Shown here: positions 1 to 13,248 of the stretch, one piece after another
Layout of the letters: each line of letters starts with the position of its first letter
Numbering within the stretch: the first letter of the stretch is position 1
NCBI GenBank assembly: GCA_041600415.1
Contig: JBFIKF010000004.1
Coordinates: 208,327-272,326 of the forward strand
Direction: 5' to 3'
From: Porticoccaceae bacterium
GTDB lineage: Bacteria; Pseudomonadota; Gammaproteobacteria; Pseudomonadales; Porticoccaceae
Length of the DNA stretch: 64,000 nucleotides
The notes under the pieces: generated by a model
Told to the model about the DNA's origin: nothing
Seen by the model: the letters and a program-made list of their open reading frames with translations, nothing else
Databases searched by the model: none
Position numbers and translations under genes: made by a program

Positions 1-797
1 CGGAAAGCAATCTGACCGTCACCCAGATCAAGGATATTAACCGGCGTATGTCCATCGGCGAAGCCAAAGCGCGCCGCGCCAAAAAAGAAATGGTGGAGGC
101 CAACCTGCGTCTGGTGATTTCCATCGCCAAAAAATACACTAACCGCGGGCTACAATTCCTCGATCTGATTCAGGAAGGCAATATCGGCCTGATGAAAGCC
201 GTGGACAAGTTTGAGTATCGGCGCGGCTACAAATTTTCGACCTACGCCACCTGGTGGATTCGTCAGGCCATCACCCGTTCCATCGCGGATCAAGCGCGCA
301 CCATTCGTATTCCGGTGCACATGATCGAGACCATCAACAAACTCAACCGCATTTCCCGACAGATGGTTCAGGAAATGGGACGCGAACCCACCCCTGAAGA
401 ATTGGGCGTGCGCATGGAATTGCCGGAGGACAAAATTCGCAAGGTCCTGAAAATCGCCAAGGAACCCATTTCCATGGAAACGCCCATCGGCGACGATGAA
501 GACTCCCATTTAGGAGACTTTATCGAGGACGTCAACGCCGATTCTCCGGTCAACTCCGCCACCCAGGAAAGCCTGACCGAAGCGACCCGCGAGGTGCTCA
601 ACGGCCTTACCGCACGGGAAGCCAAGGTGCTGCGCATGCGCTTTGGCATCGACATGAATACCGACCACACCCTGGAAGAAGTGGGCAAACAGTTTGACGT
701 GACCCGCGAGCGAATTCGCCAGATAGAGGCCAAGGCCCTGCGCAAACTGCGCCACCCCAGCCGCTCCGACCACATGCGCAGCTTTCTCGACGAATAA
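1..797 (+). CDS. rpoD: RNA polymerase sigma-70 factor RpoD, C-terminal part (5' end lies outside the window)
   Basis: The reading frame is open to the window edge. It carries region 2-4 signatures [39 protein letters not shown] and [30 protein letters not shown]. Confidence 0.97.
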
Positions 798-854
798 TCC
801 GTCAGCGGCCCGCGCAACACAACTGGTGAACTACTGCCGAGCCTTTTATACTGC

Positions 855-880
855 CGCCCCTGTAGCCGGGGCGCTGGGTT
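855..880 (+). terminator. Possible weak intrinsic terminator after rpoD
   Basis: Hairpin CGCCCC(855-860)/GGGGCG(868-873) with a 7-nt loop, followed by CTGGGTTTC. The U-tract is short. Confidence 0.35.
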
Positions 881-1030
881 TCGGACGCAATCCGCGGATC
901 GCCAAAGACCGACGCCGAATTTTTGCTGCCACATCAGGAACTGCACAGCAAGATGAGCAAGCGTACATAAATTATGTAAAAGAAGCGCGCGAGTATGCCA
1001 CACAGCCGCGCAGCGCAAAGAAAGTTTTAA

Positions 1031-1107
1031 GGGCCCATAGCTCAGTTGGTTAGAGCAGTCGACTCATAATCGATTGGTCCCAGGTTCAAGTCCTGGTGGG
1101 CCCACCA
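1031..1107 (+). tRNA. ileX: tRNA with CAU anticodon, most likely tRNA-Ile2 (lysidine-modified, ileX-like)
   Basis: Cloverleaf with acceptor GGGCCCA/TGGGCCC plus ACCA, D-arm AGCTCAGTTGGTTAGAGC, anticodon loop CTCATAA and T-arm GGTTCAAGTCC. The T-arm and variable region (TTGGTC) match my recollection of E. coli ileX rather than elongator tRNA-Met (GGTTCGAATCC). ileX also sits just downstream of rpoD in E. coli. Confidence 0.85.
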
Positions 1108-1194
1108 AATTAACTCCATACCTCAGTAGCAGTTACCGCAACGAGCACTCTACAATTTAATTTGCTCAAAGTATCTGGCAGTCACGCGAACACA

Positions 1195-1923
1195 TTAAGC
1201 CCCCAGTTCATCGGCAAGTGCTCTCAGTAGTTTGCCACCATCGCCGCGCCAGGCACTGCCGTGCATGCAGGCAAGGGTTTTCGGTTCGGCGGCGGCGAGA
1301 CGTTCGAGCATGGCTCGGGTGTTGGGAGCGTGGGAGTAGTAGTCCATTTGTTTACGAAACGCTTCGCTGGGACCCAGAATGTCGCCCTCGGTGACGGCGG
1401 GCAGATCGGTGCCACTCTGGGTGAACAGATCGCCGCACATCAAGGTTTTGGTGGTCTCTTCAAACAGATAACCACATTCCCAGCCGTGGGGAAGATGGGG
1501 TGTGTCGAACCAGCGCACGCTGTGGCTACCCAGCGATACTCGTTCGCCGTCTTCGAGAGTGCGCGGAGGGCGTTCGGCAATGTCGTTAATCGACGTCATG
1601 CCCGCCACCCGACTACACAGCGCTACCGACTCGGGCGCCGCTGCCAGCCATTCATTGAGGGAGCCGCACTCGTCCCCTTCCACGTGGGAAAAGGCAATAT
1701 AGCGCAGGCTCTCCACCGGCAGCACGGTCGCGACTGCCTCCCGGATCAACGGAAACATCTGCCGCGGCCCGGTGTGAAACAGTAGAGGTTCGTCACTGGC
1801 AATCAAATACTGGTTAAACGAAAATCCCACCCCATTGGGAAAGGACAGGGGCGTGTTGATGCGATAAATCCCCTCGGTGACTTCATGAACGTTGGTACCC
1901 GACTGCTGGTTGGTAATAGTCAT
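1195..1923 (-). CDS. MBL-fold protein, flavodiiron/ODP-like metal-binding domain
   Basis: 242 aa. It has a beta-lactamase-fold-like metal motif FSHVEGDECG and later HLPHGW and CMHGS. No closer assignment is possible. Confidence 0.5.
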   Translation of the reverse strand: MTITNQQSGTNVHEVTEGIYRINTPLSFPNGVGFSFNQYLIASDEPLLFHTGPRQMFPLIREAVATVLPVESLRYIAFSHVEGDECGSLNEWLAAAPESVALCSRVAGMTSINDIAERPPRTLEDGERVSLGSHSVRWFDTPHLPHGWECGYLFEETTKTLMCGDLFTQSGTDLPAVTEGDILGPSEAFRKQMDYYSHAPNTRAMLERLAAAEPKTLACMHGSAWRGDGGKLLRALADELGA

Positions 1924-2144
1924 TATTATTGCCTCTTGATCAGTGAATTGCCTAAGATAGTACCAAATGGTGCCGATTGCATACTCTTTTGTTTGTACGT
2001 TTCGTCCAATTCCAGCCTGTACGCGCCCAGGCGCTTGGCGTCCAACTGCCCCCTCCCAAACACCGCTTACATTTATTCACTTAGGTTGTGCACTCGATGT
2101 GTCCAGCCGGTAAAATGACTCCGAATGCAACCAATGAGTACCCT

Positions 2145-3167
2145 ATGACAGATACGGTTCTGGTGACCGGCGGGGCAGGTTATATCGGCACCCATACCTG
2201 CGTGGAGCTGCTAATCGCAGGCTATGAGGTTGTGGTGCTCGATAATCTCAGCAGTGGCTCGGGCCAGGCTCTGGAGCGGGTTGAGCAGATTGCCGGAAAA
2301 CCGGTGACGCTGGTAACCGGTGATGTGCGCGATCAGGCCCTGTTAACCCAGCTCTTCTGTGATTATCAATTTAGCGCGGTGGTGCATTTTGCCGGACTTA
2401 AAGCGGTGGGAGAATCCTGCGAAATGCCCCTGACCTATTACGAAAATAACGTGAGTGGCACCATTGCTCTGTGCCAGGCAATGGCGAACCACGGCGTCAG
2501 GCAACTGGTATTCAGTTCCTCAGCCACGGTATATGGCAAGCCCGTGTTGCTGCCCGCGACCGAGGATATGCCCCTGTCGGCGACCAATCCCTACGGCCGT
2601 TCCAAGCTAATTATTGAAGAGATACTACGGGACCTGTACCGCTCCGATTCCGCCTGGAGCATCGCTCTACTACGCTATTTTAATCCAGCCGGTGCCCACC
2701 CCAGCGGCCTGATTGGCGAAGACCCTAACGGTGTCCCCAGCAACCTGATGCCCTATATCGCCCAGGTGGCCGCTGGCGCCCTGCCGCAGTTACAGGTGTT
2801 CGGCGACGACTACGACACGGCGGATGGCACCGGCGTACGGGACTATATTCACGTGGTCGATCTTGCTCGAGGGCACGTCCAGGCCATCCGCAAACTAACT
2901 GCCGAGCCGGGCCGATGTGACGCCTGGAACCTGGGTGTGGGCAAAGGCTATAGCGTGCTGGAGGTGGTGGCAGCATTTGCGCGCGTCAGCGGGCAAAATA
3001 TCCCCTATGTGGTCAGCGAGCGACGCCCTGGTGATATTGCCGCCTGCTATGCGGACCCGGGCAAAGCCGAGCTGGAACTCAATTGGCGTGCCACGCAAAC
3101 TCTGGACGATATGGTGCGCGATGTATGGCGTTGGCAGACGGCTAATCCGAGTGGTTATGGCCAGTAG
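2145..3167 (+). CDS. galE: UDP-glucose 4-epimerase
   Basis: Rossmann motif VLVTGGAGYIGTH, catalytic YGRSK, and end-to-end GalE-like sequence. The ORF track starts at 2088. I prefer the ATG at 2145 (MTDTVLVTGG), which is typical GalE N-terminal spacing. Confidence 0.9.
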   Translation: MTDTVLVTGGAGYIGTHTCVELLIAGYEVVVLDNLSSGSGQALERVEQIAGKPVTLVTGDVRDQALLTQLFCDYQFSAVVHFAGLKAVGESCEMPLTYYENNVSGTIALCQAMANHGVRQLVFSSSATVYGKPVLLPATEDMPLSATNPYGRSKLIIEEILRDLYRSDSAWSIALLRYFNPAGAHPSGLIGEDPNGVPSNLMPYIAQVAAGALPQLQVFGDDYDTADGTGVRDYIHVVDLARGHVQAIRKLTAEPGRCDAWNLGVGKGYSVLEVVAAFARVSGQNIPYVVSERRPGDIAACYADPGKAELELNWRATQTLDDMVRDVWRWQTANPSGYGQ

Positions 3168-3230
3168 CGCGCTCTGCATCTGGTTGTTCTATCCCCTCCA
3201 CAACATACTGCCAACGGTAATAGACTAGCC

Positions 3231-4388
3231 ATGCGGATTGCTTTTATTTTGTACAAGTATTTTCCCTATGGCGGCCTGCAACGGGACTTTCTACGTATCG
3301 CCCGCGAGTGCGCCGCACAGGGTTGTGAGATCCGCGTGTACAGCATGGACTGGGAAGGCGAGCGCGAACCGGACTGGGATATCCGTCTATGGCGCCCGTT
3401 TGCGCTTACCGGGCACGGCCGCAACGAACGTTTTCAGCGCTGGGTGTATGCGGAACTTACACGGCAGCCGGTGGATGTGGTGGTCGGTTTTAACAAGATG
3501 GCCGGACTGGATTTATATTATGCGGCAGATGGCTGTTACGAGGCCAAAATCAGCAGTCAGCGGGGCAGCTGGTACAAACACCTGGGTCGTTACCGCCATT
3601 TCGCGCGCAACGAACAGGCGGTATTCGCCGCTCACGGTAATACGGAAATCATGATGATATCCCGGGTACAACAACCTTTTTTCGAACACCACTACGGTAC
3701 GCCGCCGGAGCGGTTTGTGCTACTGCCCCCGGGTATTGCGAGGGATCGTCGCGCACCCACCAATGCGTCGCAGCTTCGCGCGGACTTCCGCAAGGAGTTT
3801 GCGCTGGCGGATGACGAGCGATTGCTACTGATGATCGGCTCGGGATTCAAAACCAAAGGCCTGGATCGGGCCTTGCGGGCACTCGCCGCACTGCCGCCCG
3901 CCCAGGGCGCACGCACACGACTGTTTGTAATTGGCCAGGACGATTCGCGGTCTTTTAAGCTACAGGCCAAGCGCCTAGGAATTGGTAAACGGGTCGCATT
4001 TTTTGTCGGTCGGGACGACATTCCCCGCTTTCTGCTCGGCGCCGACTTACTGATACACCCCGCCTACAACGAAAATACTGGCACCGTCTTACTCGAGGCG
4101 CTGGCCGCCGGTTTACCGGTGCTATGCACGGACGTGTGCGGGTACGCCCACTACATCGCGGAAGCCGACGCGGGCGTAGTGCTGTCTGCGCCCTTTCAGC
4201 AAGCCGACCTGGACCGAACCCTGGCGGATGTGCTGATATCGAAAAAGCGTGCGCAGTGGCAACGCCATGCGCTGGCCTTCGCCGATCAGGCCGATATTTA
4301 CAGCCTGCCCCAACGGGCCGCAGAGCGCATTATGGCTCGCGCTCGCCAGCACACTCCAAGCAACGCAGGTTCCGAGGTCGGCGCATGA
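3231..4388 (+). CDS. waaG: LPS core glucosyltransferase I (GT4), WaaG/RfaG
   Basis: The N-terminus MRIAFILYKYFPYGGLQRDFLRIA and the stretch HPAYNENTGTVLLEALAAGLPVLCTDVCGYAHYI closely parallel E. coli WaaG as I recall it. Confidence 0.88.
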   Translation: MRIAFILYKYFPYGGLQRDFLRIARECAAQGCEIRVYSMDWEGEREPDWDIRLWRPFALTGHGRNERFQRWVYAELTRQPVDVVVGFNKMAGLDLYYAADGCYEAKISSQRGSWYKHLGRYRHFARNEQAVFAAHGNTEIMMISRVQQPFFEHHYGTPPERFVLLPPGIARDRRAPTNASQLRADFRKEFALADDERLLLMIGSGFKTKGLDRALRALAALPPAQGARTRLFVIGQDDSRSFKLQAKRLGIGKRVAFFVGRDDIPRFLLGADLLIHPAYNENTGTVLLEALAAGLPVLCTDVCGYAHYIAEADAGVVLSAPFQQADLDRTLADVLISKKRAQWQRHALAFADQADIYSLPQRAAERIMARARQHTPSNAGSEVGA

Positions 4389-5197
4389 TCTGGTTGCGCA
4401 ACGATTTCAAAAAAATCTGGGGAGATGGCGACCCTTTTGCGCGCGTAAAAAACATCAAAGGGAAAATTTATCGGGAGATGTCGGGACGACGTACGCTGCA
4501 GTTCCAGGAGGGAGACGAGTCGTATTTTTTGAAATTACACCTGGGTGTCGGCTGGCTGGAAATTATCAAAAACCTGGTTCTGTTGCGCTTGCCTGTGCTT
4601 AGTGCGCGCAATGAATACGACGCCATTCGCCGCTGTGAGCGCCTCGGCGTGCAAACCATGGCGCCCGTCGCTTTTGGGGTAACGGGCCGCAATCCCGCGC
4701 GGCGCCAGTCGTTTATCGTCACCGAGGATCTGGTGCACACCATCAGCCTTGAGGATTTATGCCGAGACTGGCCGCGCAACCCACCACCCTACTGGTTGAA
4801 AACGGCGTTAATCAATCAGATTGCGGATATTAGCCGACGCCTGCACGACAATGGCATCAACCATCGCGATTACTACATCTGTCATTTTTTATTAAAAGTT
4901 CCTAACGGTGTCGCTGCGCTCACCCCCCGCGATTTGCGACTGTATCTGATCGACCTGCATCGCGCCCAGCTACGGATCGAGACACCACGACGTTGGATTA
5001 TCAAGGATCTTGCTGCGCTCTATTTTTCCGTGCTGAACATTGGCTTATGCAAGCGGGATTTGCTGCGCTTCGTACGTCGTTACACGGGTCTGCCGCTAAA
5101 GCAGGCCATGGTCGAACAAGAATGGCTATGGCGCCCATTGATTAAAAAAGCTGCCAAACTAAGAAGGCGACAGGTACGTTACGGCGGAGAGTTATGA
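4385..5197 (+). CDS. waaP: LPS core heptose(I) kinase WaaP/RfaP
   Basis: MIWLRNDFKKIW... with YFLKLH and the kinase catalytic loop NHRDYYICHFLL. The ATG at 4385 overlaps the waaG stop (ATGA). The ORF-track start at 4124 is an out-of-context upstream extension overlapping waaG. Confidence 0.85.
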   Translation: MIWLRNDFKKIWGDGDPFARVKNIKGKIYREMSGRRTLQFQEGDESYFLKLHLGVGWLEIIKNLVLLRLPVLSARNEYDAIRRCERLGVQTMAPVAFGVTGRNPARRQSFIVTEDLVHTISLEDLCRDWPRNPPPYWLKTALINQIADISRRLHDNGINHRDYYICHFLLKVPNGVAALTPRDLRLYLIDLHRAQLRIETPRRWIIKDLAALYFSVLNIGLCKRDLLRFVRRYTGLPLKQAMVEQEWLWRPLIKKAAKLRRRQVRYGGEL

Positions 5198-5277
5198 ATA
5201 TATTTATTGTCGGCGCTGACTGAAATCTTGAAAAAATGTGGCCCACCCCCTATCCAGGCAATAATTTCATCAATAGA

Positions 5278-6180
5278 TTACCCAGGAAGATCTACTATAC
5301 GCTCGAAAGCCGCCTGAAAATTCTGGCTTATTTCCGCTTTCAAAGCTTCTAATTCAATTGACGCAGGCGACCAGTTTATTTTTTGTGCTAATTTAGCGTT
5401 GATTACTGGCGCCAATATACCTGACGTTTTCACATAATTAATCTCAATAAGATCAGAAATTATTTTAACTCGATAATCATCGCGCTTAGCCGAATCATAG
5501 AGGAAAATCACAGGGATGCCCATGGCGATGCAAGGCATTGCGCAATGTATTTTTGAGGTTATCACGAGCTTCGCTCGATCGCGATACTGCGCCAAAAGCT
5601 CTTCTGCGAGCGCAAGTTTGAGCTGGGTATTGGTAATTGGAAGCCGTATCCTCGCCTGATCAACCGTGATCGCCTGGCGGCGAATTGCCTTTGGAACTGC
5701 GTAGCGGGCTTTCTTTGAAATACCAACAATAAATACTTGCCCATCTTTCGGTACGTCTTTGCGTCTGGGAAGCGTGAGCGTGACACAACGACTATAATAT
5801 GCTTCGACACCATATCGAGCCAATATCTCCATTGTACCCTTGTCTCTACAGCCAATGGGCTGCCAGCGTTTAAGATAAGCAATTCCACTATCACTACAAA
5901 CAACTTTTTCCGTTTCGGGCGTCATATGAAAAGAGAAGAAAATTGGTTTTACCATCGGCGAAGGAGGCCAATTTTCGGTGTTCATAAAAAATCCGTTTAG
6001 TGGCACGGTGCATGGTTCTTTTATTTGATTTAATGCCTCGCGACATACATATCCATCAACTCGGGGCAAAAGCCTACTAACCGCCAACGTTTGAATATCA
6101 TCGCCGAGATTAAAAGATCTTTCAAAATGTTTCCCCGTATACTCCAAGACACATATTTTTTTAAACAGAACATCTACCAT
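5278..6180 (-). CDS. Polysaccharide pyruvyl transferase family protein
   Basis: 300 aa with NLGDDIQTLA near the N-terminus, CRDKGT, and KIHCAMPCIAMGIPVIFLY. This pattern is typical of the CsaB/WcaK-type pyruvyl transferase family. The gene is AT-rich. Confidence 0.6.
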   Translation of the reverse strand: MVDVLFKKICVLEYTGKHFERSFNLGDDIQTLAVSRLLPRVDGYVCREALNQIKEPCTVPLNGFFMNTENWPPSPMVKPIFFSFHMTPETEKVVCSDSGIAYLKRWQPIGCRDKGTMEILARYGVEAYYSRCVTLTLPRRKDVPKDGQVFIVGISKKARYAVPKAIRRQAITVDQARIRLPITNTQLKLALAEELLAQYRDRAKLVITSKIHCAMPCIAMGIPVIFLYDSAKRDDYRVKIISDLIEINYVKTSGILAPVINAKLAQKINWSPASIELEALKAEISQNFQAAFERIVDLPG

Positions 6181-7337
6181 GATATTTTTCGCTGTATTAT
6201 TCTTACAATACGCCTCATACTACTACCTACCCTTCGCCCTTTCATAATAATTTTGTTCATAGATTTTGGTCGATCAACAATATGCTGCCATGCCTGATAT
6301 ATATCGGTACCACTCAACCCAGCCGACCGCATGGCCAATATATTATCCTGCGCAAGTTTCGTTAGCAATTCGTCATAAATAACCAGCTTACGGATGTCCT
6401 CTGCTTGCAACATAGAAGTGAATGTCGTTGCATTATCAAGCGCACCGACTGCGAAGAGGCTTGTCTTGGTTCTAAGGCATTTTTCACAGCGCTCGCAGTT
6501 GTAGGTACCAGTGACATTATCCCAACATACTCTAAGATGATTTAATGCCAGGTTACTTTTTGCAATCATTTTAGTTTTTTGAAACCGACTTGTTTCACAG
6601 CCATCGTGAATAATTTCAAGTCTTTCGTCAGAAAACAGTGGATCGGTGTCGGGATGCGATCCCCAGGGAGTCAACATTTTATAATCTAGCGAAGATGGAA
6701 TATATAGCCGATCCAGATAATCGCTCAATTGCCGAGCAACGGCACCAAGACCATAGCCGTGTCCGTGGGCCCCCCAACGCCCGTAGTCTCTGTATACCCG
6801 TATACTGTTTGTTTCAATCTGGACGAAGCGAACACCCGTTTCAGCCTGTATAGCTCGCCCCATAGCAGCAATTGCCGCCCTCCTGGGGGTATCAGTAAGC
6901 TTCACATCATAACCGTGAACATAGATCAGGTCAGTGATATCGCTCTTATTCTTAATAAACGTATAGAATGAATCCACACCGCCGGTAAAGAAGCTACCAA
7001 CCCTCCCGGTTTTAGACGTATCTCGCTCAATGGCTGTGTCCGCAACCAGTTTGATTTTTTGGTAACTGGGAAACCAATCAGTGAATGTCTCAATTAATCG
7101 TTGTTGATTATGAATGAATGCAGAGGAGATCGGATCAATAATGTGAAGATCCAGGCCATTTTTCATGCCACCCAATGCACCCATCGCTACTGCAGATTCT
7201 GCGCTGGCATTGAGCTTTACATCGTCTGATGCAAAGTACAGATGGTAACTACGGCCATTAATGGACAGGTCGTAATCCACCCGATTGCCGCTAGCGACAC
7301 CACCCGTTATTGTTATTCCATCGTCCGCTGATGCCAT
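6174..7337 (-). CDS. Uncharacterised protein with a PP-loop-like motif and a QueC-like Cys cluster (putative ATP pyrophosphatase-type glycan-modifying enzyme)
   Basis: 387 aa. GSFFTGGVDSFYT (TGGVDS encoded at 6969-6986) resembles the SGGxDS PP-loop. VCWDNVTGTYNCERCEKCLRT (6477-6527) is C-x9-C-x2-C-x2-C, like the QueC zinc site. Its stop overlaps the downstream pyruvyl transferase start (ATGGTAG). Confidence 0.4.
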   Translation of the reverse strand: MASADDGITITGGVASGNRVDYDLSINGRSYHLYFASDDVKLNASAESAVAMGALGGMKNGLDLHIIDPISSAFIHNQQRLIETFTDWFPSYQKIKLVADTAIERDTSKTGRVGSFFTGGVDSFYTFIKNKSDITDLIYVHGYDVKLTDTPRRAAIAAMGRAIQAETGVRFVQIETNSIRVYRDYGRWGAHGHGYGLGAVARQLSDYLDRLYIPSSLDYKMLTPWGSHPDTDPLFSDERLEIIHDGCETSRFQKTKMIAKSNLALNHLRVCWDNVTGTYNCERCEKCLRTKTSLFAVGALDNATTFTSMLQAEDIRKLVIYDELLTKLAQDNILAMRSAGLSGTDIYQAWQHIVDRPKSMNKIIMKGRRVGSSMRRIVRIIQRKISW

Positions 7338-7902
7338 AAGGCCAGACTCGATTTCCCTGTAATATTACAATTATGCGGACGCATTTTACCCGGAGCCAGT
7401 TGCGCGGCACAACCACGAATTCACTAATCTTCGCAGTGGTTATACCAGGTATGCGACGCGCCATCTTTATTGAATCATGAGTCAAAAACCGATATCAAAG
7501 GCGTGGCCAACCCCAAACTTAATCATCAGCGTGACGTATACAGAATCAAACCGAACGATATTCTGGTTATTAGCTCTTATCGAATCCAACCAATGACTCG
7601 GCTTGCGGCTAATAGACCACGAATGCTGACTAAGTTATACGTGCGCAAGCATACTTGGGGAACTCTTCATTTTGGGTTAGGCATCCCTGTGTTACATAAA
7701 GAGACTACCCGACAGCCATCAACCATCTGGCAACAGCCAGCCACTTGTCAGCCTGCCTAACAAAATTGACCAGGATCCATGAAATACCTTCCGCAAGGAG
7801 TGCGAATAGAGCACACCCTCAAACTGAACGGACGCAGGACGCATTTCGCGCTTTCCAGCTTTACCCTGAAGGTTCAGAGATGTGGTTTGCAAGCTTTTTG
7901 TA

Positions 7903-7932
7903 TTCAAAATGAACCCCCTCCAGGCCTATAAT
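7903..7932 (+). promoter_or_regulatory. Candidate sigma-70 promoter for the GT2 gene
   Basis: TTCAAA (7903-7908), an 18-nt spacer, then TATAAT (7927-7932), about 50 nt upstream of the ATG at 7984. The -10 element is bracketed by two AGGCCT copies (7922-7927 and 7934-7939). Confidence 0.35.
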
Positions 7933-7983
7933 GAGGCCTATCAAATTTTATTGCCGCCGGTCATCAAAGTAGAAAGATATTGA

Positions 7984-8964
7984 ATGAAAGACCATCAACC
8001 GTTATTCAGCATAATTATCCCATCATACAACTACGCGCATTCGCTAGGTCGCGCGATTGAATCGACCTTGTGTCAGGTTGGCAATGATTACGAGCTAGTC
8101 ATTATCGATGATGGCTCCACCGATAATACCGCAGACGTCGTCAGCGGCCTCCAGTTAAAGTATCCCTCTCGCATCGCATATTACACCCAGGAAAATGGCG
8201 GCCCAGCCACTGCCCGCAATCGAGGTATAGATATGAGCACTGGTCGCTATCTGGTTTTTCTCGATGCCGATGACGCACTGACAGACTCAGCTCTGCAGTT
8301 GTTCCGCGATAGTATTAATCTACAACCTGCTACAGGAATGATAATCGGCGGTCACTGGAGTGTGAGTCAACACGGAACAGATGAGCAAAAACGCTACCGC
8401 TCACCTGGCATACTCCCCGCTGATTCGTTGTCCCGGCTGCAGGCGTACTTGCTAGATAAATCTTTGGTGATAGCACATGGAGCCTGCGCTATGCGCCGCG
8501 ATGTATTTGATCGATACAGATACCCGGCGCTCTTTAGGAGCAGCGAGGACATTCCAGTATTTGCTTACATTCTGGCTAATTTTTCAGTATGCACCATCAA
8601 TAAACCGATTGCCAAAATCTACTTACATACAGATAGCCTGCGACATAACGTCGACCACGCTAGAACCATTGGTGACAGTCTCGTGAACGAGGTGTTCTCG
8701 CCGGACAGGATGTCTGGGGCCTTACAAATATTGAAAAAACCGTTTCACATACAGCGCAATCTGTCCCTGTCACGCACATTCTTCATCGCGGGCGACCATA
8801 AGGCCGGTTACCTTTTATTTATCGCCGCACTGAAGTTAAATTGGCGGGTATTATTTAAATGGTCATACTCTGGCAAAGCCATCCGCGCTTTCCTAAAAAG
8901 TAGAAAGGATAACACCAAAAAGAAACGTGCTTTGGCCGCACGCAGTTGTCCTAGAAAGGAGTGA
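7984..8964 (+). CDS. Family 2 glycosyltransferase
   Basis: FSIIIPSYNYAHSLGRAIES, VIIDDGSTDNT, and the DxD motif FLDADD. Confidence 0.85.
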   Translation: MKDHQPLFSIIIPSYNYAHSLGRAIESTLCQVGNDYELVIIDDGSTDNTADVVSGLQLKYPSRIAYYTQENGGPATARNRGIDMSTGRYLVFLDADDALTDSALQLFRDSINLQPATGMIIGGHWSVSQHGTDEQKRYRSPGILPADSLSRLQAYLLDKSLVIAHGACAMRRDVFDRYRYPALFRSSEDIPVFAYILANFSVCTINKPIAKIYLHTDSLRHNVDHARTIGDSLVNEVFSPDRMSGALQILKKPFHIQRNLSLSRTFFIAGDHKAGYLLFIAALKLNWRVLFKWSYSGKAIRAFLKSRKDNTKKKRALAARSCPRKE

Positions 8965-9167
8965 AAATCTGTTACCTCGCTGATCACGCCTGCGAGCACG
9001 GCTCGGCGCTGTGCCCTGCTATCCAGAGCCCGCCAGTGGAAGAAATATGGAGCCAGAGCCTGAATCCCACACCGCGAATGGGCAAAACTATGCGGCCGGC
9101 CACGCACCGTGGCCCGATTGCTAAGCTATCCCTCAAGCAGCGCCCGCCAACTTCGGGCGAGGACTAA
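8961..9167 (+). pseudogene. Possible remnant of a GT4-type glycosyltransferase gene (only the N-terminus is recognisable)
   Basis: A GTG start overlaps the GT2 stop (GTGA) and is preceded by AAAGGA. The product begins MKICYLADHA, like many GT4 N-termini, then loses similarity and stops after 68 codons. No intact ORF occupies 8965-9431. Confidence 0.25.
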
Positions 9168-9431
9168 TTGTTGCGCAAAGCAGTACGGACCCACGAGCTA
9201 ATCTGGGTGCGCGCCCTGGCCGACTAGCTGGTTGAAGGGACCAAATCACGTACCAGTATGGCATAATGAGCGATCCTCAGGGAAATGATCATTCGCCCTC
9301 GCGGCGGAAAAACCAATGGCAACCAGGACACTGAAAATGGTACACAGGCGGCGGTATACGTTTGCTGAGTTGCGCTTAAAATCAAAAACAACATACCTCC
9401 GCCAGTCCCCATATCCTGTGGATAATGCCGC

Positions 9432-10166
9432 ATGTTAAATCCCGAAAAACGTGTAAAAATCTTTCTCAAAAAAAGAAAAATACGCCGAGAGACACCGCAG
9501 ATTTGGCTTTTACCTCAGGCCAAGTTTGGATATATACAAATCCCTAAAGTAGCGAGCCGCTCCATTCGCGCCGGTATTATAGAGATGGCGCGCAGGGAAA
9601 TGGAATACAGTATACCCCAACAAAGTAAATCGGACGCGCAAGTAGAAAAAATATTTAGCAGCCACATGCCACATAAAAAGCTCGCAGAATTAAGTAAAGA
9701 ATATTTTTTATTCGCATTTGTACGAAATCCGCTTACCCGCCTCTATTCAGCTTATATGAACAAGCTAATCGACCCTCAGCCCCGGGGTGGTCGAAACATT
9801 TTTTCTCACATGGATATGCCAATAGGCATGGCTTTCGAAAGCTTCGTCAAGCGCGTTGCGGAATTAAAAGATAATGAAATAGATCGTCATCTTAGACCTC
9901 AACGCTGGTTCCTGACCTGTGAAGGTCGACTTTTTACAAACTACGTCGGAAAGATGGAAACTTTTTCAGCCGACTGGACGGTGCTTCAGAACAAATTCAG
10001 CTTACCCTGCTTATCGCATAAAAATTCGAGTAGCGCGATGGGAATGCAAACTGGACACCGGTTCACACGTCGGCTCGCAGAAATCGCGATTGAGCGCTAC
10101 AAAGATGACATAGAGCTATTCGGATATGGGGATCAGGTGCGGCAATTTATGGATGGACTGAATTGA
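9432..10166 (+). CDS. Carbohydrate sulfotransferase (Sulfotransfer_2-like, PAPS-dependent)
   Basis: 5'-PSB-like IPKVASRSIRAG, 3'-PB-like FAFVRNPLTRLYSAY, and DRHLRPQ. The gene is AT-rich. Confidence 0.65.
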   Translation: MLNPEKRVKIFLKKRKIRRETPQIWLLPQAKFGYIQIPKVASRSIRAGIIEMARREMEYSIPQQSKSDAQVEKIFSSHMPHKKLAELSKEYFLFAFVRNPLTRLYSAYMNKLIDPQPRGGRNIFSHMDMPIGMAFESFVKRVAELKDNEIDRHLRPQRWFLTCEGRLFTNYVGKMETFSADWTVLQNKFSLPCLSHKNSSSAMGMQTGHRFTRRLAEIAIERYKDDIELFGYGDQVRQFMDGLN

Positions 10167-10524
10167 TTTATCGGGATTCTCTCGGGATACTTCCCGAATA
10201 CACACCGATGCGTCGCGCCAGTTTATTCCGTGCATCCTGCAAATGCTAGCCGTGGACCGCAAACTTACGGCAACCGGCGGGGAGCTTGATTCCTGCTCGC
10301 GGCATGTGGTGTAAGGGTCACCAATGCGGCAGGATAATATATCGTCCCGTCTTGAGCTAAATGTTGGACGTTTTAAACGCGTTTTCGGTTTCCAGGCAGA
10401 CGTATGATAAGATCCAATCGTCGCGCGAAGCCTGTTTTAGCTATTTGCACACGATCTGAGCAGGTCGGGATGCTCTTAAATTATTTTCTGCTTAGGTCAT
10501 TCTAAAAAAACTATATTCATACCG

Positions 10525-11127
10525 ATGACGCCCGTGAAGAAAATATTGTTTATCTCACTATTAATATTCGTCACCTGGAAACTAACCAACGGGCCAGGCG
10601 AGGTAACCCTTGGCCCTGGCGTCATGGCGAAGGATGCGCCCGTGCAACAGAATGCAGTTTTGTCACAAAAATTCCAGCTGGACGATTACGAAATTACCCC
10701 TACGGCGCGCTTTGACATCAGGGCCAAAGTGCTGGGCAGCAAGAGCTACACCTTTGGGCGCGAAGCGGATGTATCTCCGATCGATCTCACTTTGGGATGG
10801 GGGCCCATGTCCGACGAAAGAATTTTGCAGACAATACAAATCTCGCAAAGTAATCGTTTCTATCGATGGCGCGTGAAGGAGTTTCCAATACCCCGTCGCG
10901 AAATCGAAACGAACAGTGCCAATATGCACATGATTCCAGCTAATAAAACTATCGCAAAAAAAATTAAGGCGGCCCGCCAGGGAGATATTATTAAACTCTC
11001 TGGCCACCTGGTAAATGTCAGCGCTCCGGACGGATGGATGTGGAAAAGCTCCCTTACTCGTCAAGATACCGGTAGTGGCGCCTGTGAATTGATCTGGGTT
11101 GAACAATTTGATGTGCTCACTCTGTAA
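10525..11127 (+). CDS. Conserved hypothetical protein with an N-terminal membrane anchor
   Basis: 200 aa. It has a hydrophobic N-terminus KKILFISLLIFVTW, then a soluble domain with DLTLGWGPMSD and QDTGSGACELIWV. I recognise no family. Confidence 0.5.
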   Translation: MTPVKKILFISLLIFVTWKLTNGPGEVTLGPGVMAKDAPVQQNAVLSQKFQLDDYEITPTARFDIRAKVLGSKSYTFGREADVSPIDLTLGWGPMSDERILQTIQISQSNRFYRWRVKEFPIPRREIETNSANMHMIPANKTIAKKIKAARQGDIIKLSGHLVNVSAPDGWMWKSSLTRQDTGSGACELIWVEQFDVLTL

Positions 11128-11231
11128 ACGATGTGCCCCTAACGGCATGACTGAATATTCCACACCACTGCTCTGCGATCGTAGAACGATGCTACACTTC
11201 GTACACTTTCGGACAATACAAGGGGACTGCT

Positions 11232-11816
11232 ATGGCGCGTGTGGCAATAGTTAAAGGGGCAACTGGCGACGACCCGATGATCGCGGCGATATTCGATTGG
11301 GTCACCCAAATGGAGGGTGCTGTGCCAAACCACTTTTACGTCGAGATGAATTTTCCAGAACACTTCAAGGCGAAACTCAGCGCCACTCGCGTGCTATGGG
11401 AAATGGGCGAGTTATCCCTTGAGGAGATTCAACACGTTGGCATTCTGGTTTCCCGGGATAATGGCTGTGCCTACTGTACGGCGGCGTTTTGCACCATTCT
11501 CAATCACGGCCTGGGCGCCCCTGAAAGCGGCGTAAAAACATTGGTCAGCCAGGGTGTTGAAGCGGTAACCGATCCGCGGCTTAAAGCGATTCTAACGTTC
11601 GCTCTGAAGATCAACAAATATCCTGAAACGACAACCGACGCTGATATGGACGTGTTGCGCGCTCAGGGGCTAACTGACAAAGGTATTGTGCAGCTTGTGC
11701 ATCTGGTGAGTGATTTTGCGTCGTACAATCGCCTTAATCTGGTGCTGCAAACCGACTACGATTACCGCGACCTGTGGCGCGCGGCTGCGCAGTTAGAGCC
11801 ATCCGAATCGTCCTGA
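11232..11816 (+). CDS. AhpD-like / carboxymuconolactone decarboxylase family protein
   Basis: 194 aa with the CxxC motif in DNGCAYCTAAFC and a helical repeat typical of the CMD/AhpD fold. Confidence 0.6.
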   Translation: MARVAIVKGATGDDPMIAAIFDWVTQMEGAVPNHFYVEMNFPEHFKAKLSATRVLWEMGELSLEEIQHVGILVSRDNGCAYCTAAFCTILNHGLGAPESGVKTLVSQGVEAVTDPRLKAILTFALKINKYPETTTDADMDVLRAQGLTDKGIVQLVHLVSDFASYNRLNLVLQTDYDYRDLWRAAAQLEPSESS

Positions 11817-11961
11817 CTATTGCGGGATTACCTGCGACTGGAAGTCCCCAATCGCAGAGCCCGAAATCTTCGAATCAGGGAAGCGGCGGCGTCCACAGGT
11901 CTGTCATAATTACACCTGTCGTAGTCCAGAACGGCATGCACTTTGATGCTTGATACCTGTA

Positions 11962-12690
11962 ATGCGTAAAAACTATCGTCCAACAACTCGGAGGCGTCCT
12001 TGGCTCGTCAGGGGTTTTTTGTGTGCCCTTGTGGGGTTAGTTGGCCTTCCGGTACTTGTGATTCTGAGCCTGCGCTGGATACCACCACCCACCAGCGCAT
12101 TTATGCTGGGATGGCAAATCGACCATAGTTTCAGGAATCTGCCCGCACAAGCAAAACTTCACTATCGATGGACGCCGTGGGAGCAGATTTCACCGTTTGC
12201 GCCGCTGGCCGTGATCGCCGCCGAAGATCAAAAATTTCCCGATCACTGGGGTTTTGATTTTACCGCGATTAGTGCAGCGCTCGACCACAGTCAGCGCGGT
12301 GGCCGCCTGCGAGGCGCGAGTACCATTAGCCAGCAAGTGGCCAAGAATCTGTTTTTATGGTCGGGGCGCAGTTTTATCAGAAAGGGACTGGAAGCCTACC
12401 TGACCCTACTAATTGAAACCCTGTGGCCAAAACAGCGTATTCTTGAAGTCTACCTGAATGTGGTCGAATTTGGCGATGGCGTGTACGGCGTCAATGCTGC
12501 GGCTGAACAGTTTTTTGGAACCACGCCGTCGCGACTTACCCATACCGAGGCGGCGCGCCTGGCCGCTGTGTTACCAAACCCCAAAGGCTTTAGCGCGGCC
12601 CACCCATCGGCGTATGTTTGGCAACGGGTGCGCTGGATCAGGAGCCAGATGAATCAACTTGGCGGTACTGCATACCTGAAAAAGTTGTGA
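11962..12690 (+). CDS. mtgA: Monofunctional peptidoglycan glycosyltransferase
   Basis: GT51 motifs AAEDQKFPDHWGFD, GASTISQQVAKN and RILEVYLNVVEFG, plus a single N-terminal TM segment. I prefer the ATG at 11962 over the TTG at 11950. Confidence 0.9.
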   Translation: MRKNYRPTTRRRPWLVRGFLCALVGLVGLPVLVILSLRWIPPPTSAFMLGWQIDHSFRNLPAQAKLHYRWTPWEQISPFAPLAVIAAEDQKFPDHWGFDFTAISAALDHSQRGGRLRGASTISQQVAKNLFLWSGRSFIRKGLEAYLTLLIETLWPKQRILEVYLNVVEFGDGVYGVNAAAEQFFGTTPSRLTHTEAARLAAVLPNPKGFSAAHPSAYVWQRVRWIRSQMNQLGGTAYLKKL

Positions 12691-12765
12691 CGGAAACAAA
12701 TAAATTACCGCCCACTACGCAGAATGCCAGGGCCCAGAAGTAGACCCTGGCAACCCACAGGTCAA

Positions 12766-13248
12766 TCACAATTTGCTTAACACATGATCCGCGGCGCTAA
12801 CTTTAAATTTACCCGGCTCCTCGATCAGTGCATCGACCACCCTGCCGTTATCAACGATCAACGCAAACCGTTGGCCGCGCTTGCCCATGCCGAAACCGCT
12901 GGCATCCAGCTCCAACCCCAGCGCCTTGCTGTACTCGCCGTTGCCGTCGGCAAGCATGGTTACCTTGCCATCCGCGCCAGCCTGTTTGCCCCAGGCGTCC
13001 ATCACGAACACATCATTGACGGCCATGCAGGCGATGGTATCGACGCCTTTCGCCTTGAAGGCGCTCGCCTGCTCAATAAACCCCGGTAAATGTTCCCGGG
13101 AACAGGTGGGGGTAAACGCCCCCGGCACGGAAAACAGCACGACTTTTTTGCCACTGAACAACGCATCACTGGTCAGAGAACCGGGACCGTCTGCCTTCAT
13201 TATGGTGAAACGCCCTTCCGGGACCTGATCACCCGCTTTAATTGTCAT
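12766..13248 (-). CDS. Prx5-type peroxiredoxin
   Basis: 160 aa with the peroxidatic motif VPGAFTPTCS. Confidence 0.85.
   Translation of the reverse strand: MTIKAGDQVPEGRFTIMKADGPGSLTSDALFSGKKVVLFSVPGAFTPTCSREHLPGFIEQASAFKAKGVDTIACMAVNDVFVMDAWGKQAGADGKVTMLADGNGEYSKALGLELDASGFGMGKRGQRFALIVDNGRVVDALIEEPGKFKVSAADHVLSKL

Follow-up and report, generated by a model that had tools for sequence, protein, structure and literature searches.

A QueC-like PP-loop protein family linked to polysaccharide pyruvyl transferases: candidates for ATP-dependent tailoring of pyruvylated glycans

The 387-aa protein (hereafter T) encoded next to a polysaccharide pyruvyl transferase (PyrT) in the window, that is, the whole 64,000-nt stretch of Porticoccaceae DNA analysed here, represents a new, glycan-associated branch of the QueC-like PP-loop enzymes, an assignment that is well supported as regards both fold and gene linkage. 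As the best explanation of these data, to which we give a probability of about 40%, T and PyrT would function as a unit in which, by analogy with characterised relatives, T adenylates the carboxylate of the pyruvate ketal and an amide then forms. As part of this same explanation, the T family would be a large and uncharacterised sister group of the DUF6395 proteins. The features on which the analysis builds are listed in Table 1.

Table 1. Features of the T-PyrT locus and of the genes around it in the window.
Feature	Position (nt)	Strand	Basis or remark
Gene for T, 387-aa QueC-like PP-loop protein	6174..7337	-	ORF and translation
PP-loop of T, T118-G-G-V-D-S123	6969..6986	-	Direct sequence reading
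Cys4 motif of T, C271-x9-C281-x2-C284-x2-C287, then L288 R289 T290	6477..6527	-	Putative QueC-type zinc site
N-terminal domain of T, ~residues 1-110	7008..7337	-	Beta-meander plus two helices (model)
C-terminal basic amphipathic helix of T, residues 356-387	6177..6272	-	Model helix 358-386
Polysaccharide pyruvyl transferase gene (PyrT), 300 aa	5278..6180	-	Pfam PF04230
T stop/PyrT start overlap, ATGGTAG, 7 nt	6174..6180	-	ORF coordinates and sequence
galE	2088-3167	+	GalE 4.7e-138 (Pfam/NCBIfam)
GT4 waaG-like glycosyltransferase	3231-4388	+	Glycos_transf_1 2.6e-33
Heptose kinase waaP/rfaP	about 4385-5197	+	RfaP 1.2e-108
GT2 glycosyltransferase	7984-8964	+	Pfam 2.3e-32; divergent from T
Sulfotransfer_2 protein	9432-10166	+	Pfam 4.3e-22; divergent from T

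Residues 114-126 of T read GSFFTGGVDSFYT, with TGGVDS at 118-123, following a strand that spans residues 113-116 in the AlphaFold model. The protein has five cysteines, at positions 247, 271, 281, 284 and 287. Across 38 aligned homologues, which share 34-86% identity with the window protein, [ST]GGVDS is invariant, and so are F117, G119, G120, V121, D122, S123 and F124 around the PP-loop and C271, N280, C281, C284, E285, K286, C287, R289 and T290 at the Cys4 motif. This invariance indicates that neither motif arose by chance, and the ORF and both motifs lie exactly where a preliminary description of this DNA had placed them. The fifth cysteine, C247 (HDGCE, residues 244-248), which had escaped that description, is nearly conserved as well. 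Conserved positions of the N-terminal domain in the same alignment are E47, L55, M58 and S71; modelled alone (pLDDT 89), this domain had no significant match in the PDB, its best matches being RNase H- and YeaZ-like (E 5e-3, TM ≤0.5). At the opposite end of the protein, residues 356-387 contain 11 K/R and no D/E in 32 residues, with a hydrophobic moment of 0.90, and a basic C-terminal tail is found in 38 out of 38 homologues; the helix formed by this segment is possibly a membrane-surface anchor.

Foldseek comparison of the AlphaFold model of T (pLDDT 93.8) with the PDB retrieved QatC as the best match (9y02_B; E 7e-6 over 380 columns), the other top matches being QueC of B. subtilis and Pectobacterium (3bl5 and 2pg3) and Cap9 (9nto_B). 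Superposition yielded a TM score of 0.64 normalised to the target and an rmsd of 4.6 for 3bl5, and a TM score of 0.64 for Cap9. Match probabilities were 1.00 for QatC and QueC, 0.90 for Cap9, 0.82-0.89 for TrmU/MnmA and ~0.5 for TtuA and GMP synthetase, and beta-lactam synthetase and AsnB-type structures matched poorly (TM ~0.24). Phage QueC proteins likewise ranked first for T in a library of viral structures. Judged from the predicted model, assignment of T to the Rossmann-like PP-loop superfamily (adenine nucleotide alpha-hydrolase-like) is well supported. The QueC-like fold anticipated in the preliminary description is thereby upheld, since the structural check proposed there recovered a fold of the alpha-hydrolase type, not an unrelated one. 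Separately, we considered whether T might be a [4Fe-4S] sulfur transferase like TtuA or LarE and rejected this idea, because the cysteine spacing of T is that of the QueC zinc site and sulfur-transferase structures match it poorly.

Sequence searches gave no placement of T in a curated family, and its closest named relative was DUF6395, which is itself uncharacterised. T had no Pfam match to PF06508 at E≤0.1 and did not reach the gathering threshold; weak matches to this family occur in 6 of the 38 homologues (best E 0.011), and weak Asn_synthase matches in 2. NCBIfam returned zero matches at E≤0.1 for T, hence none to any N-acetyl sugar amidotransferase model in that library, and none for PyrT either. 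No glutaminase domain was found within the 387 residues, PADLOC gave no match at E≤0.1, and searches of PDB sequences with T alone or with the 38-sequence profile returned nothing meaningful. In hhalign, the family profile aligned with E. coli QueC alone at 3.8% probability, in the PP-loop region only, and with an alignment of three QueC sequences at 10.6%, colinearly through both motifs. The similarity is limited to these two motifs, and with such low probabilities homology of T and QueC beyond them cannot be established from sequence alone. Neither in the loci retrieved for T nor in the first 22 kb of the window did any ORF encode a homologue of E. coli QueC. The family itself is large: a word-seeded search recovered 749 homologues, and there are 8,928 representatives at 50% identity, the source names seen being 'hypothetical protein' without exception. 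Our literature search on QueC-like or PP-loop proteins together with pyruvyl transferases found nothing relevant.

The partner gene begins at the ATG within TCATGGTAG, and its product matches PF04230 (PS_pyruv_trans) with E 1.3e-12 and 48.6 bits, against a cut-off of 25.3, over profile positions 98-277 of 280. PyrT of the window thus passes the Pfam cut-off for membership and is predicted to be PEP-dependent. The 7-nt overlap between the T stop and the PyrT start is real, as previously described, yet the claim that it implies co-translation was too strong, the overlap being only compatible with coupling. PyrT orthologues also come after T in the closest relatives (L004-L009). The LPS-core genes galE, waaG-like and waaP (2088..5197) converge on T-PyrT, and an identical LPS-core gene set borders the pair in the Porticoccaceae MAG L004; a GT2 gene near T recurs in L001, L002, L004, L006 and L008. 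Scanning of the region 5100-8100 for promoters and terminators revealed no excess above the shuffled expectation.

This gene arrangement extends far beyond the window. PyrT was found within 10 kb of T in ~44 of 81 loci from many phyla (41 counted plus 3 lost to the ORF filter), and the 41 counted genes lie within 150 bp (29), within 3 kb (9) or at 3-10 kb (3) of T, so that the signal decays with distance. T and PyrT are direct neighbours in ~29 of the 81 loci. About half of the 81 loci have no PyrT inside 10 kb, and no alternative recurrent partner was detected in them. For these counts, PS_pyruv_trans ORFs falling into four distinct sequence clusters were scored with four cluster-specific profiles, the representatives of which were verified against Pfam. 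A single profile seeded from the window protein was discarded as too narrow, reaching 9 loci and missing the PF04230 protein in L002. Gene calling with a GC3 filter loses several true PyrT ORFs, and the linkage therefore rests on ORF-level counts and on independent Pfam counts of neighbours. In the latter, PyrT is the commonest immediate neighbour of T (26/128), GT2 accounting for 11/128.

In at least 13 of the 81 loci, T and PyrT overlap or lie no more than 20 nt apart, and in 26 there are tandem T paralogues, in 2-5 copies. In P0127 (T-PyrT-T) and P0182 (T-T-PyrT) the two proteins are fused into single polypeptides with all motifs kept. Plasmid p4 of Azospirillum argentinense Az39 carries ABAZ39_RS31010 and ABAZ39_RS31005, an isolated PyrT+T pair with no surrounding glycan cluster, a Priestia plasmid encodes PyrT and two T paralogues, and PyrT-linked T is also present in actinobacterial and Chloroflexi-type MAGs. 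An AsnB-like gene stands beside T-PyrT in only ~5 loci, and no conserved partner supplying an amine or ammonia was found. Among the best 25 families listed for 128 + 138 neighbours, queD, queE, folE and tgt are absent, as are UDP-sugar dehydrogenase, HisH/HisF-like and uronic-acid genes; QatA/B/D and CD-NTase/Cap10 are missing both from these families and from the annotated neighbourhoods. The proposed association of T with pyruvyl transferases is borne out by neighbouring genes in many phyla, by fusion proteins and by a pair standing on its own, and PyrT is the sole recurrent partner of T, a linkage that we consider well supported.

On these grounds we envisage T as a cytoplasmic ATP pyrophosphatase that would act together with PyrT, both being produced from a shared mRNA. 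In this genome the pair sits in an LPS-core cluster (galE, waaG-like, waaP and GT2). Most likely, it would modify a sugar of the outer core before the glycolipid leaves the inner face of the cytoplasmic membrane. PyrT would first build a pyruvate ketal, the 1-carboxyethylidene group, from PEP. T, with ATP bound through TGGVDS, would then adenylate the new carboxylate with release of PPi, and a nitrogen nucleophile, either ammonia or an amine, would finally displace AMP to give an amide, by which the negative charge would be removed or replaced. The data show the fold, the conservation of the motifs and the genetic and physical coupling of T to PyrT; what T acts on, which nucleophile it uses, the sequence of the three steps, a zinc-binding role of the Cys4 motif and membrane association of the C-terminal helix are inferred. 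Since PP-loop enzymes also activate carbonyls other than carboxylates, namely those of ureido, lactam and acetamido groups, the reaction of T does not follow from its fold alone. Carboxylate adenylation and amidation are proposed by analogy with QueC, which adenylates a carboxylate and makes the amide with NH3, and with Cap9, which joins the adenylated carboxylate to a protein amine (PMC13279940; PMC13329287).

The preliminary description had also entertained Kdo as the source of the target carboxylate. This is unlikely family-wide, because Priestia and the actinobacterial and Chloroflexi-type MAGs in which T is linked to PyrT belong to groups not known to contain Kdo. Given this, and the absence of uronic-acid genes among the best 25 neighbour families, the pyruvyl carboxylate is the best candidate. 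Our search of the literature found no report of amidated pyruvate ketals. Such ketals do occur in the LPS outer core of P. stutzeri OX1, the single LPS core known to have them, which is described as highly negatively charged (PMC6801904); this description implies free carboxylates and counts against amidation.

That same core lends some weight to an unlikely alternative, according to which T is needed for pyruvylation itself and the end product is the free-carboxylate ketal. T could then be an obligatory subunit (T2-PyrT) recognising or presenting the acceptor, or it could prepare acceptor or donor at the expense of ATP. Fusion of both proteins, as T-PyrT-T or T-T-PyrT, suggests that they form a complex of fixed stoichiometry, the tandem paralogues would fit a homo- or hetero-oligomer, and the lack of a conserved nucleophile-supplying partner would be expected under this scheme. 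The strict conservation of the PP-loop, however, points to ATP chemistry and not to scaffolding. Moreover, the characterised PF04230 enzymes CsaB, WcfO, PssM and Pvg1 are active with PEP alone and are not known to require ATP or a partner, nor are we aware of any step in ketal formation that depends on ATP.

Less probable still, T might modify another glycan carbonyl, PyrT being merely a frequent fellow traveller in tailoring loci. The product would then be an amidated carboxylate of a uronic acid, of Kdo or of a nonulosonic acid, or else an acetamidino group made from an N-acetyl group in the manner proposed for the WbuX/WbpG/PseA-type PP-loop enzymes. The PP-loop superfamily is known or proposed for such chemistry on glycans, as exemplified by the AsnB-like WbpS and the WbuX/PseA family; the core made by the window cluster contains Kdo and heptose, and roughly half of the T loci have no adjacent PyrT. 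Nevertheless, NCBIfam gave no match, Asn_synthase was reached only weakly and by 2 of the 38 homologues, and AsnB-type and beta-lactam synthetase structures are the poor matches noted above. UDP-sugar dehydrogenase and HisH/HisF-like genes do not figure among the best 25 neighbour families, the pair is also found in lineages not known to have Kdo, and T is linked to PyrT in particular by the isolated Azospirillum pair and by the fusions. It is very improbable that T works like its closest structural relatives and has no glycan substrate, either making or ligating a 7-deazaguanine-type base or attaching a carboxylated small molecule to a protein N-terminus, the latter being proposed for Cap9 and QatC. 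QatC is the top match over almost the full length and shares the long extension before the PP-loop, but T lacks PADLOC matches and does not reach PF06508, QatA/B/D, CD-NTase and queD/queE are absent from its annotated or listed neighbours, the YxQxHxxE region of QueC has no counterpart in the hhalign alignment (10.6% probability), and the window PyrT starts with MVDV instead of the N-terminal glycine used by Cap9.

Pyruvylation places negative charge on surface glycans and creates ligands, for instance for SLH-domain proteins, and it therefore affects envelope charge, recognition by phages and antibodies, and polymer rheology. About 8,900 clusters of unnamed, predicted ATP-dependent enzymes linked or fused to PyrT imply a common, undescribed step in or after this process. 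Should that step be the proposed amidation of the ketal, it would serve to switch the charge of LPS cores, capsules and cell-wall polymers. It would also be the fourth use known for the QueC scaffold, the other three being nitrile synthesis, protein deazaguanylation and the putative reaction of QatC. A wider and rather doubtful reading is that, on the surface glycans of bacteria and archaea, pyruvate ketals are often processed further: a dedicated and very widespread QueC-like family would use ATP to turn the ketal carboxylate into a carboxamide, a substituent joined by an amide bond, or a nitrile, the last of which QueC makes with a second ATP. On this reading, the modification would not survive alkaline deacylation and acid hydrolysis, which would revert it or strip it off, and structural glycobiology would have missed it for this reason. 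In practical terms, thousands of 'hypothetical proteins' and DUF6395 could be better annotated, and standard glycan work-ups may erase the proposed modification.

Comparison with named systems sets T apart from each of them. T and QueC have in common a Rossmann-like PP-loop core in which the SGGxDS-type motif sits where the first strand passes into the helix, and TGGVDS of T aligns with SGGQDS of the E. coli enzyme. The Cys4 stretch of T (VCWDNVTGTYNCERCEKCLRT) is also colinear with that of E. coli QueC, including an aromatic residue after the first cysteine and an arginine after the last. In QueC the first spacer of this motif, C(x)8CxxCxxC (PMC13329287), is x8, as opposed to x9 in T. T further differs in the additional N-terminal domain of ~110 aa, in the additional basic C-terminal helix (~90 aa counting the preceding helices) and in a core that is ~25 residues shorter between the two motifs. 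In the hhalign alignment at 10.6% probability, the FDYGQRHRAE stretch of QueC is paired with no conserved counterpart in T. The context of QueC is queD/queE, whereas that of T is glycan genes.

QatC, a QueC-family protein of the QatABCD defence system, resembles T in the long N-terminal extension before the PP-loop, which lies at S156-S161 (PMC13279940), and in having a Cys4 site, that of QatC being a zinc site. Cap9, a QueC-family ligase of type IV CBASS, illustrates that amines besides ammonia can be joined to the adenylated carboxylate by this scaffold. On the other hand, QatC and Cap9 are only 12-14% identical to T, the zinc motif of QatC is Cx19CxxCxxC compared with Cx9CxxCxxC, T lacks PADLOC matches and defence-system partners, and QatC was not retrieved by the N-terminal domain of T modelled alone.

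The AsnB-like WbpS and the WbuX/WbpG/PseA amidotransferases, which are encoded in polysaccharide loci and put nitrogen onto a glycan carbonyl, share the ATP-dependent PP-loop logic proposed for T. They differ from T, which has no NCBIfam or significant Pfam match, a poor structural match to the AsnB type, and neither a glutaminase domain nor a HisH/HisF-like partner, its conserved partner being a pyruvyl transferase.

As for DUF6395 (PF19932), on which we found no paper, T stays below the gathering threshold, reaching 15.7 bits where 25 are required, and this over residues 255-318 only; weak matches occur in 8 of the 38 homologues, and hhalign probability against T is low. Yet a DUF6395 protein from the Priestia plasmid, encoded ~7 kb from PyrT and the two T paralogues, shares the architecture of T: its N-terminal domain aligns with that of T, SGGVDS follows at about residue 110, and the DUF6395 region contains C-x8-C-x2-C-x2-C-FRK.

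ORF calling and translation returned T, the gene for the QueC-like PP-loop protein, as a frame of 387 residues, with the features that the preliminary description had read from it, namely TGGVDS, the Cys cluster, the stop/start overlap, and the adjoining pyruvyl transferase, all in place. TGGVDS spans residues 118-123, within GSFFTGGVDSFYT, and the cysteines lie at positions 247, 271, 281, 284, and 287, with the motif C271-x9-C281-x2-C284-x2-C287-LRT. The next same-strand ORF, which starts at the ATG of TCATGGTAG and overlaps the T frame by 7 nt, encodes a polysaccharide pyruvyl transferase (PyrT) scoring above the Pfam threshold for PF04230 (48.6 bits vs 25.3). The surrounding region is an LPS-core locus, where T and PyrT are convergent with galE, a waaG-like gene, and waaP, and divergent from a GT2 gene and a Sulfotransfer_2 gene. 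With the start codon at 4385 taken as that of waaP, this gene and the waaG-like gene apparently have 4 nt in common; the longest waaP ORF would begin at 4124, but the RfaP alignment to it does not begin before residue 88. The Sulfotransfer_2 gene (PF03567, E 4e-22), two genes away from the T/PyrT module, hints that the core is sulfated as well as pyruvylated, which would be unusual. The same arrangement recurs in the nearest genome, a Porticoccaceae MAG (86% identity). In Pseudomonas kuykendallii, the T homologue sits within a classical waaF-waaC-waaG-waaP core cluster in the order GT2, T, PyrT, T paralogue (37% identity), and carbamoyltransferase, and a Verrucomicrobia bin carries waaP and waaG on the opposite strand, followed by T, a T paralogue, PyrT, and GT2.

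Coordinates of features in the window and in T loci of other genomes (L numbers)
Feature	Coordinates	Strand	Remark
rpoD 3' end	48-797		start of window
tRNA, anticodon CAT	1031-1107	+	directly 3' of rpoD end; sole Rfam or ARAGORN match in the 64-kb window
metallo-beta-lactamase-fold gene			near rpoD 3' end and tRNA(CAT)
galE			followed by waaG-like gene
waaG-like, GT4	3231-4388	+	followed by waaP
waaP	4385-5197	+	RfaP equivalog, E 1e-108
PyrT	5278-6180	-	PF04230
T	6174-7337	-	PP-loop protein
T-GT2 intergenic region	7338-7983		646 bp, divergent
only ORF in 7338-7983	7470-7760		96 aa, no Pfam match
promoter-like site	7903-7932	+	before GT2; 10/12 matches, whole scan not above shuffled expectation
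Sulfotransfer_2	9432-10166	+	PF03567
L001, multi-copy T	8001-11250
L002, multi-copy T	8001-10559
L066, multi-copy T			5 copies
L053, multi-copy T			4 copies
L042, multi-copy T			4 copies; PF00733 gene also adjoins T
L050, PF00733 gene	11078-12961		between PyrT and T
L055, PF00733 gene	8059-9912		between PyrT and T
L074, PF00733 gene	8145-9929		between PyrT and T
L033, PF00733 gene			adjoins T
L084, PyrT+T pair	7704-10074		Azospirillum argentinense Az39 plasmid p4
L087, DUF6395 protein	490-1806		Priestia megaterium plasmid

T belongs to a large, conserved family without a name. A word-seeded search retrieved 749 homologues, whose source names as shown were all 'hypothetical protein' and none of which had a precomputed Pfam domain. 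When 1.84 billion cluster representatives were searched exhaustively with an HMM, 8,928 proteins scored at E<=1e-3, of which 3,828 reached E<=1e-30, and scanning one genome per GTDB species uncovered at least 578 relatives. Represented among the 79 loci fetched are Gamma-, Alpha-, and Campylobacterota-type proteobacteria, Desulfobacterota, Verrucomicrobiota, Planctomycetota, Acidobacteriota, Actinomycetota, Cyanobacteria, Chloroflexota, Omnitrophota, and CPR. Alignment of 38 homologues, 34-86% identical to the window protein, revealed invariant positions at the PP-loop (F117, G119, G120, V121, D122, S123, and F124) and the Cys cluster (C271, N280, C281, C284, E285, K286, C287, R289, and T290).

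Neighbor ORFs were clustered, and in four separate clusters every member sampled matched PF04230 (E 1e-12 to 1e-35); profiles of these four were then run over 10 kb on each side of T in 81 non-redundant loci. The linkage to pyruvyl transferases anticipated in the preliminary description held, as a PyrT-like ORF was found within this range in 41 of the 81. The distance was <=150 bp in 29 loci, within 3 kb in 9, and 3-10 kb in just 3, a decay that serves as an internal control. Loci L001, L005, and L070 are missing from this count solely through over-long ORF calls overlapping T, and the L001 PyrT carries the PF04230 annotation. An independent Pfam count of immediate neighbors (n=128) gave the same picture, PS_pyruv_trans being commonest (26), followed by GT2 (11) and GT4 (4). 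Same-strand T/PyrT junctions with an overlap or a gap <=20 nt occur in at least 13 loci. No family recurs in the loci devoid of PyrT, whose contexts look unrelated to each other. Together, these data make functional coupling of T to PyrT very probable.

This association extends to single polypeptides. P0127 (1259 aa) reads T-PyrT-T and P0182 (1249 aa) T-T-PyrT, each with two T and one PS_pyruv_trans domain and with FSGG[VI]DS and the Cys4 motif retained in every T copy; other fusions join T to a GT4 (P0202) or a GT2 (P0148) domain. Tandem paralogues, 2-5 copies, occur in 26/81 loci, often flanking a single PyrT or standing before it, and the two copies share 37-46% identity with the window protein; they could form a hetero-oligomer or differ in specificity. 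The Priestia plasmid carries PyrT and then two T paralogues, and haloarchaeal plasmids also harbor homologues, the locus inspected (Haloterrigena turkmenica) being rich in glycan genes. On Az39 p4, a PyrT+T pair stands by itself, with a multicopper oxidase gene on one side, an ABC-transporter/modA operon on the other, and no glycosyltransferase genes close by, which makes it a handy minimal system for genetics. An asparagine-synthase-like PP-loop gene (PF00733) adjoins T in ~5 loci; where it lies between PyrT and T, the module thus holds two different PP-loop enzymes. An N-terminal Cys glutaminase start is not obvious in the L050 ORF.

Sequence methods leave T unplaced, whereas its predicted structure places it. 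PDB sequence searches gave no significant match and NCBIfam none, and the sole Pfam match was a sub-threshold DUF6395 over the cysteine region. Weak Pfam matches among the 38 homologues were to DUF6395 (8) and to three PP-loop families, QueC (6), Asn_synthase (2), and diphthamide synthase (1). However, AlphaFold2, run on the alignment, gave a model (mean pLDDT 93.8, pTM 0.90) whose best PDB matches were QatC, from the QatABCD defence system (380 columns aligned, E 7e-6), QueC from B. subtilis (rmsd 4.6 Å, TM 0.64 relative to QueC) and from Pectobacterium, and Cap9 (TM 0.64), with beta-lactam synthetase, TtuA, MnmA, and GMP synthetase far lower. Phage QueC proteins made up most of the top matches in a viral structure library. 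Profile alignment to QueC by hhalign was weak (probability 10.6%) yet colinear, pairing the PP-loops, and VCWDNVTGTYNCERCEKCLRT with the 20-letter Cys-motif stretch of E. coli QueC. The QueC-like PP-loop fold first suggested by the motifs is thus almost certain from the model, which presents T as such an enzyme with two added regions. The first, an N-terminal domain of ~110 residues, had no significant structural relative in the PDB when modelled alone (pLDDT 89). The other, at the C terminus, is helical, and its last helix is strongly basic and amphipathic (11 K/R and 0 D/E in 32 residues; hydrophobic moment 0.90); the basic tail is present in 38/38 homologues and may anchor the protein to the membrane surface.

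PyrT makes a new carboxylate on the sugar. Strict conservation of the PP-loop leads us to expect catalysis by T, and since its nearest characterised relatives adenylate a carboxylate and hand it to a nitrogen nucleophile, i.e., ammonia in QueC and a protein N-terminal amine in Cap9 (PMC13279940), and PyrT is the sole conserved partner, the simplest reading is the one already put forward in the preliminary description: T would activate the 1-carboxyethylidene carboxylate with ATP and then form an amide, to which we assign a probability of about 0.4. A reaction that depends on ATP would be cytoplasmic, which agrees with the cytoplasmic neighbors (WaaP and glycosyltransferases) and the basic helix. 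Weighing against this chemistry, no amidated pyruvate ketal was found in the searchable literature, no nitrogen-donor partner is conserved, and the one LPS core known with pyruvate ketals, that of P. stutzeri OX1, is reported to be highly negatively charged (PMC6801904). The fusions and paralogue arrays would suit equally well a subunit that pyruvylation itself requires, a role we regard as rather improbable. Kdo, also named in the preliminary description, is unlikely as a family-wide substrate because the module is present in Gram-positive lineages. Roles akin to QueC, QatC, or Cap9 are disfavoured, as annotated neighbourhoods and listed neighbor families contain no que or defence genes, PADLOC gives no match, and T falls below PF06508.

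The enzyme kind, a QueC-like PP-loop ATP pyrophosphatase, is already known. For the T branch, with its architecture, size, and near-exclusive pyruvyl transferase partnership, we found no description in the literature, and a 2026 survey of PF06508 does not mention polysaccharide or pyruvyl contexts (PMC13329287). The finding is a solid lead to a putative function of T. Its closest named relative, the Priestia DUF6395 protein, shares the layout of T, with an alignable N-terminal domain, SGGVDS near residue 110, and a QueC-type Cys4 (C-x8-C-x2-C-x2-C-FRK) within the DUF6395 region. The PF19932 model spans only residues 231-403 of 438, and evidently covers just the C-terminal half of a PP-loop family sister to T; the PP-loop outside and the Cys4 inside this region indicate that DUF6395 proteins are PP-loop enzymes whose sole annotation is that of a domain of unknown function. 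Our literature search found no papers mentioning DUF6395. The QueC signature combines SGGxDS with the zinc site C(x)8CxxCxxC (PMC13329287), and QatC retains a Cx19CxxCxxC variant, with its PP-loop at S156-S161 (PMC13279940; PMC13376578) and hence also a long N-terminal extension. The first Cys spacer of T is x9, against x8 in QueC and x19 in QatC.
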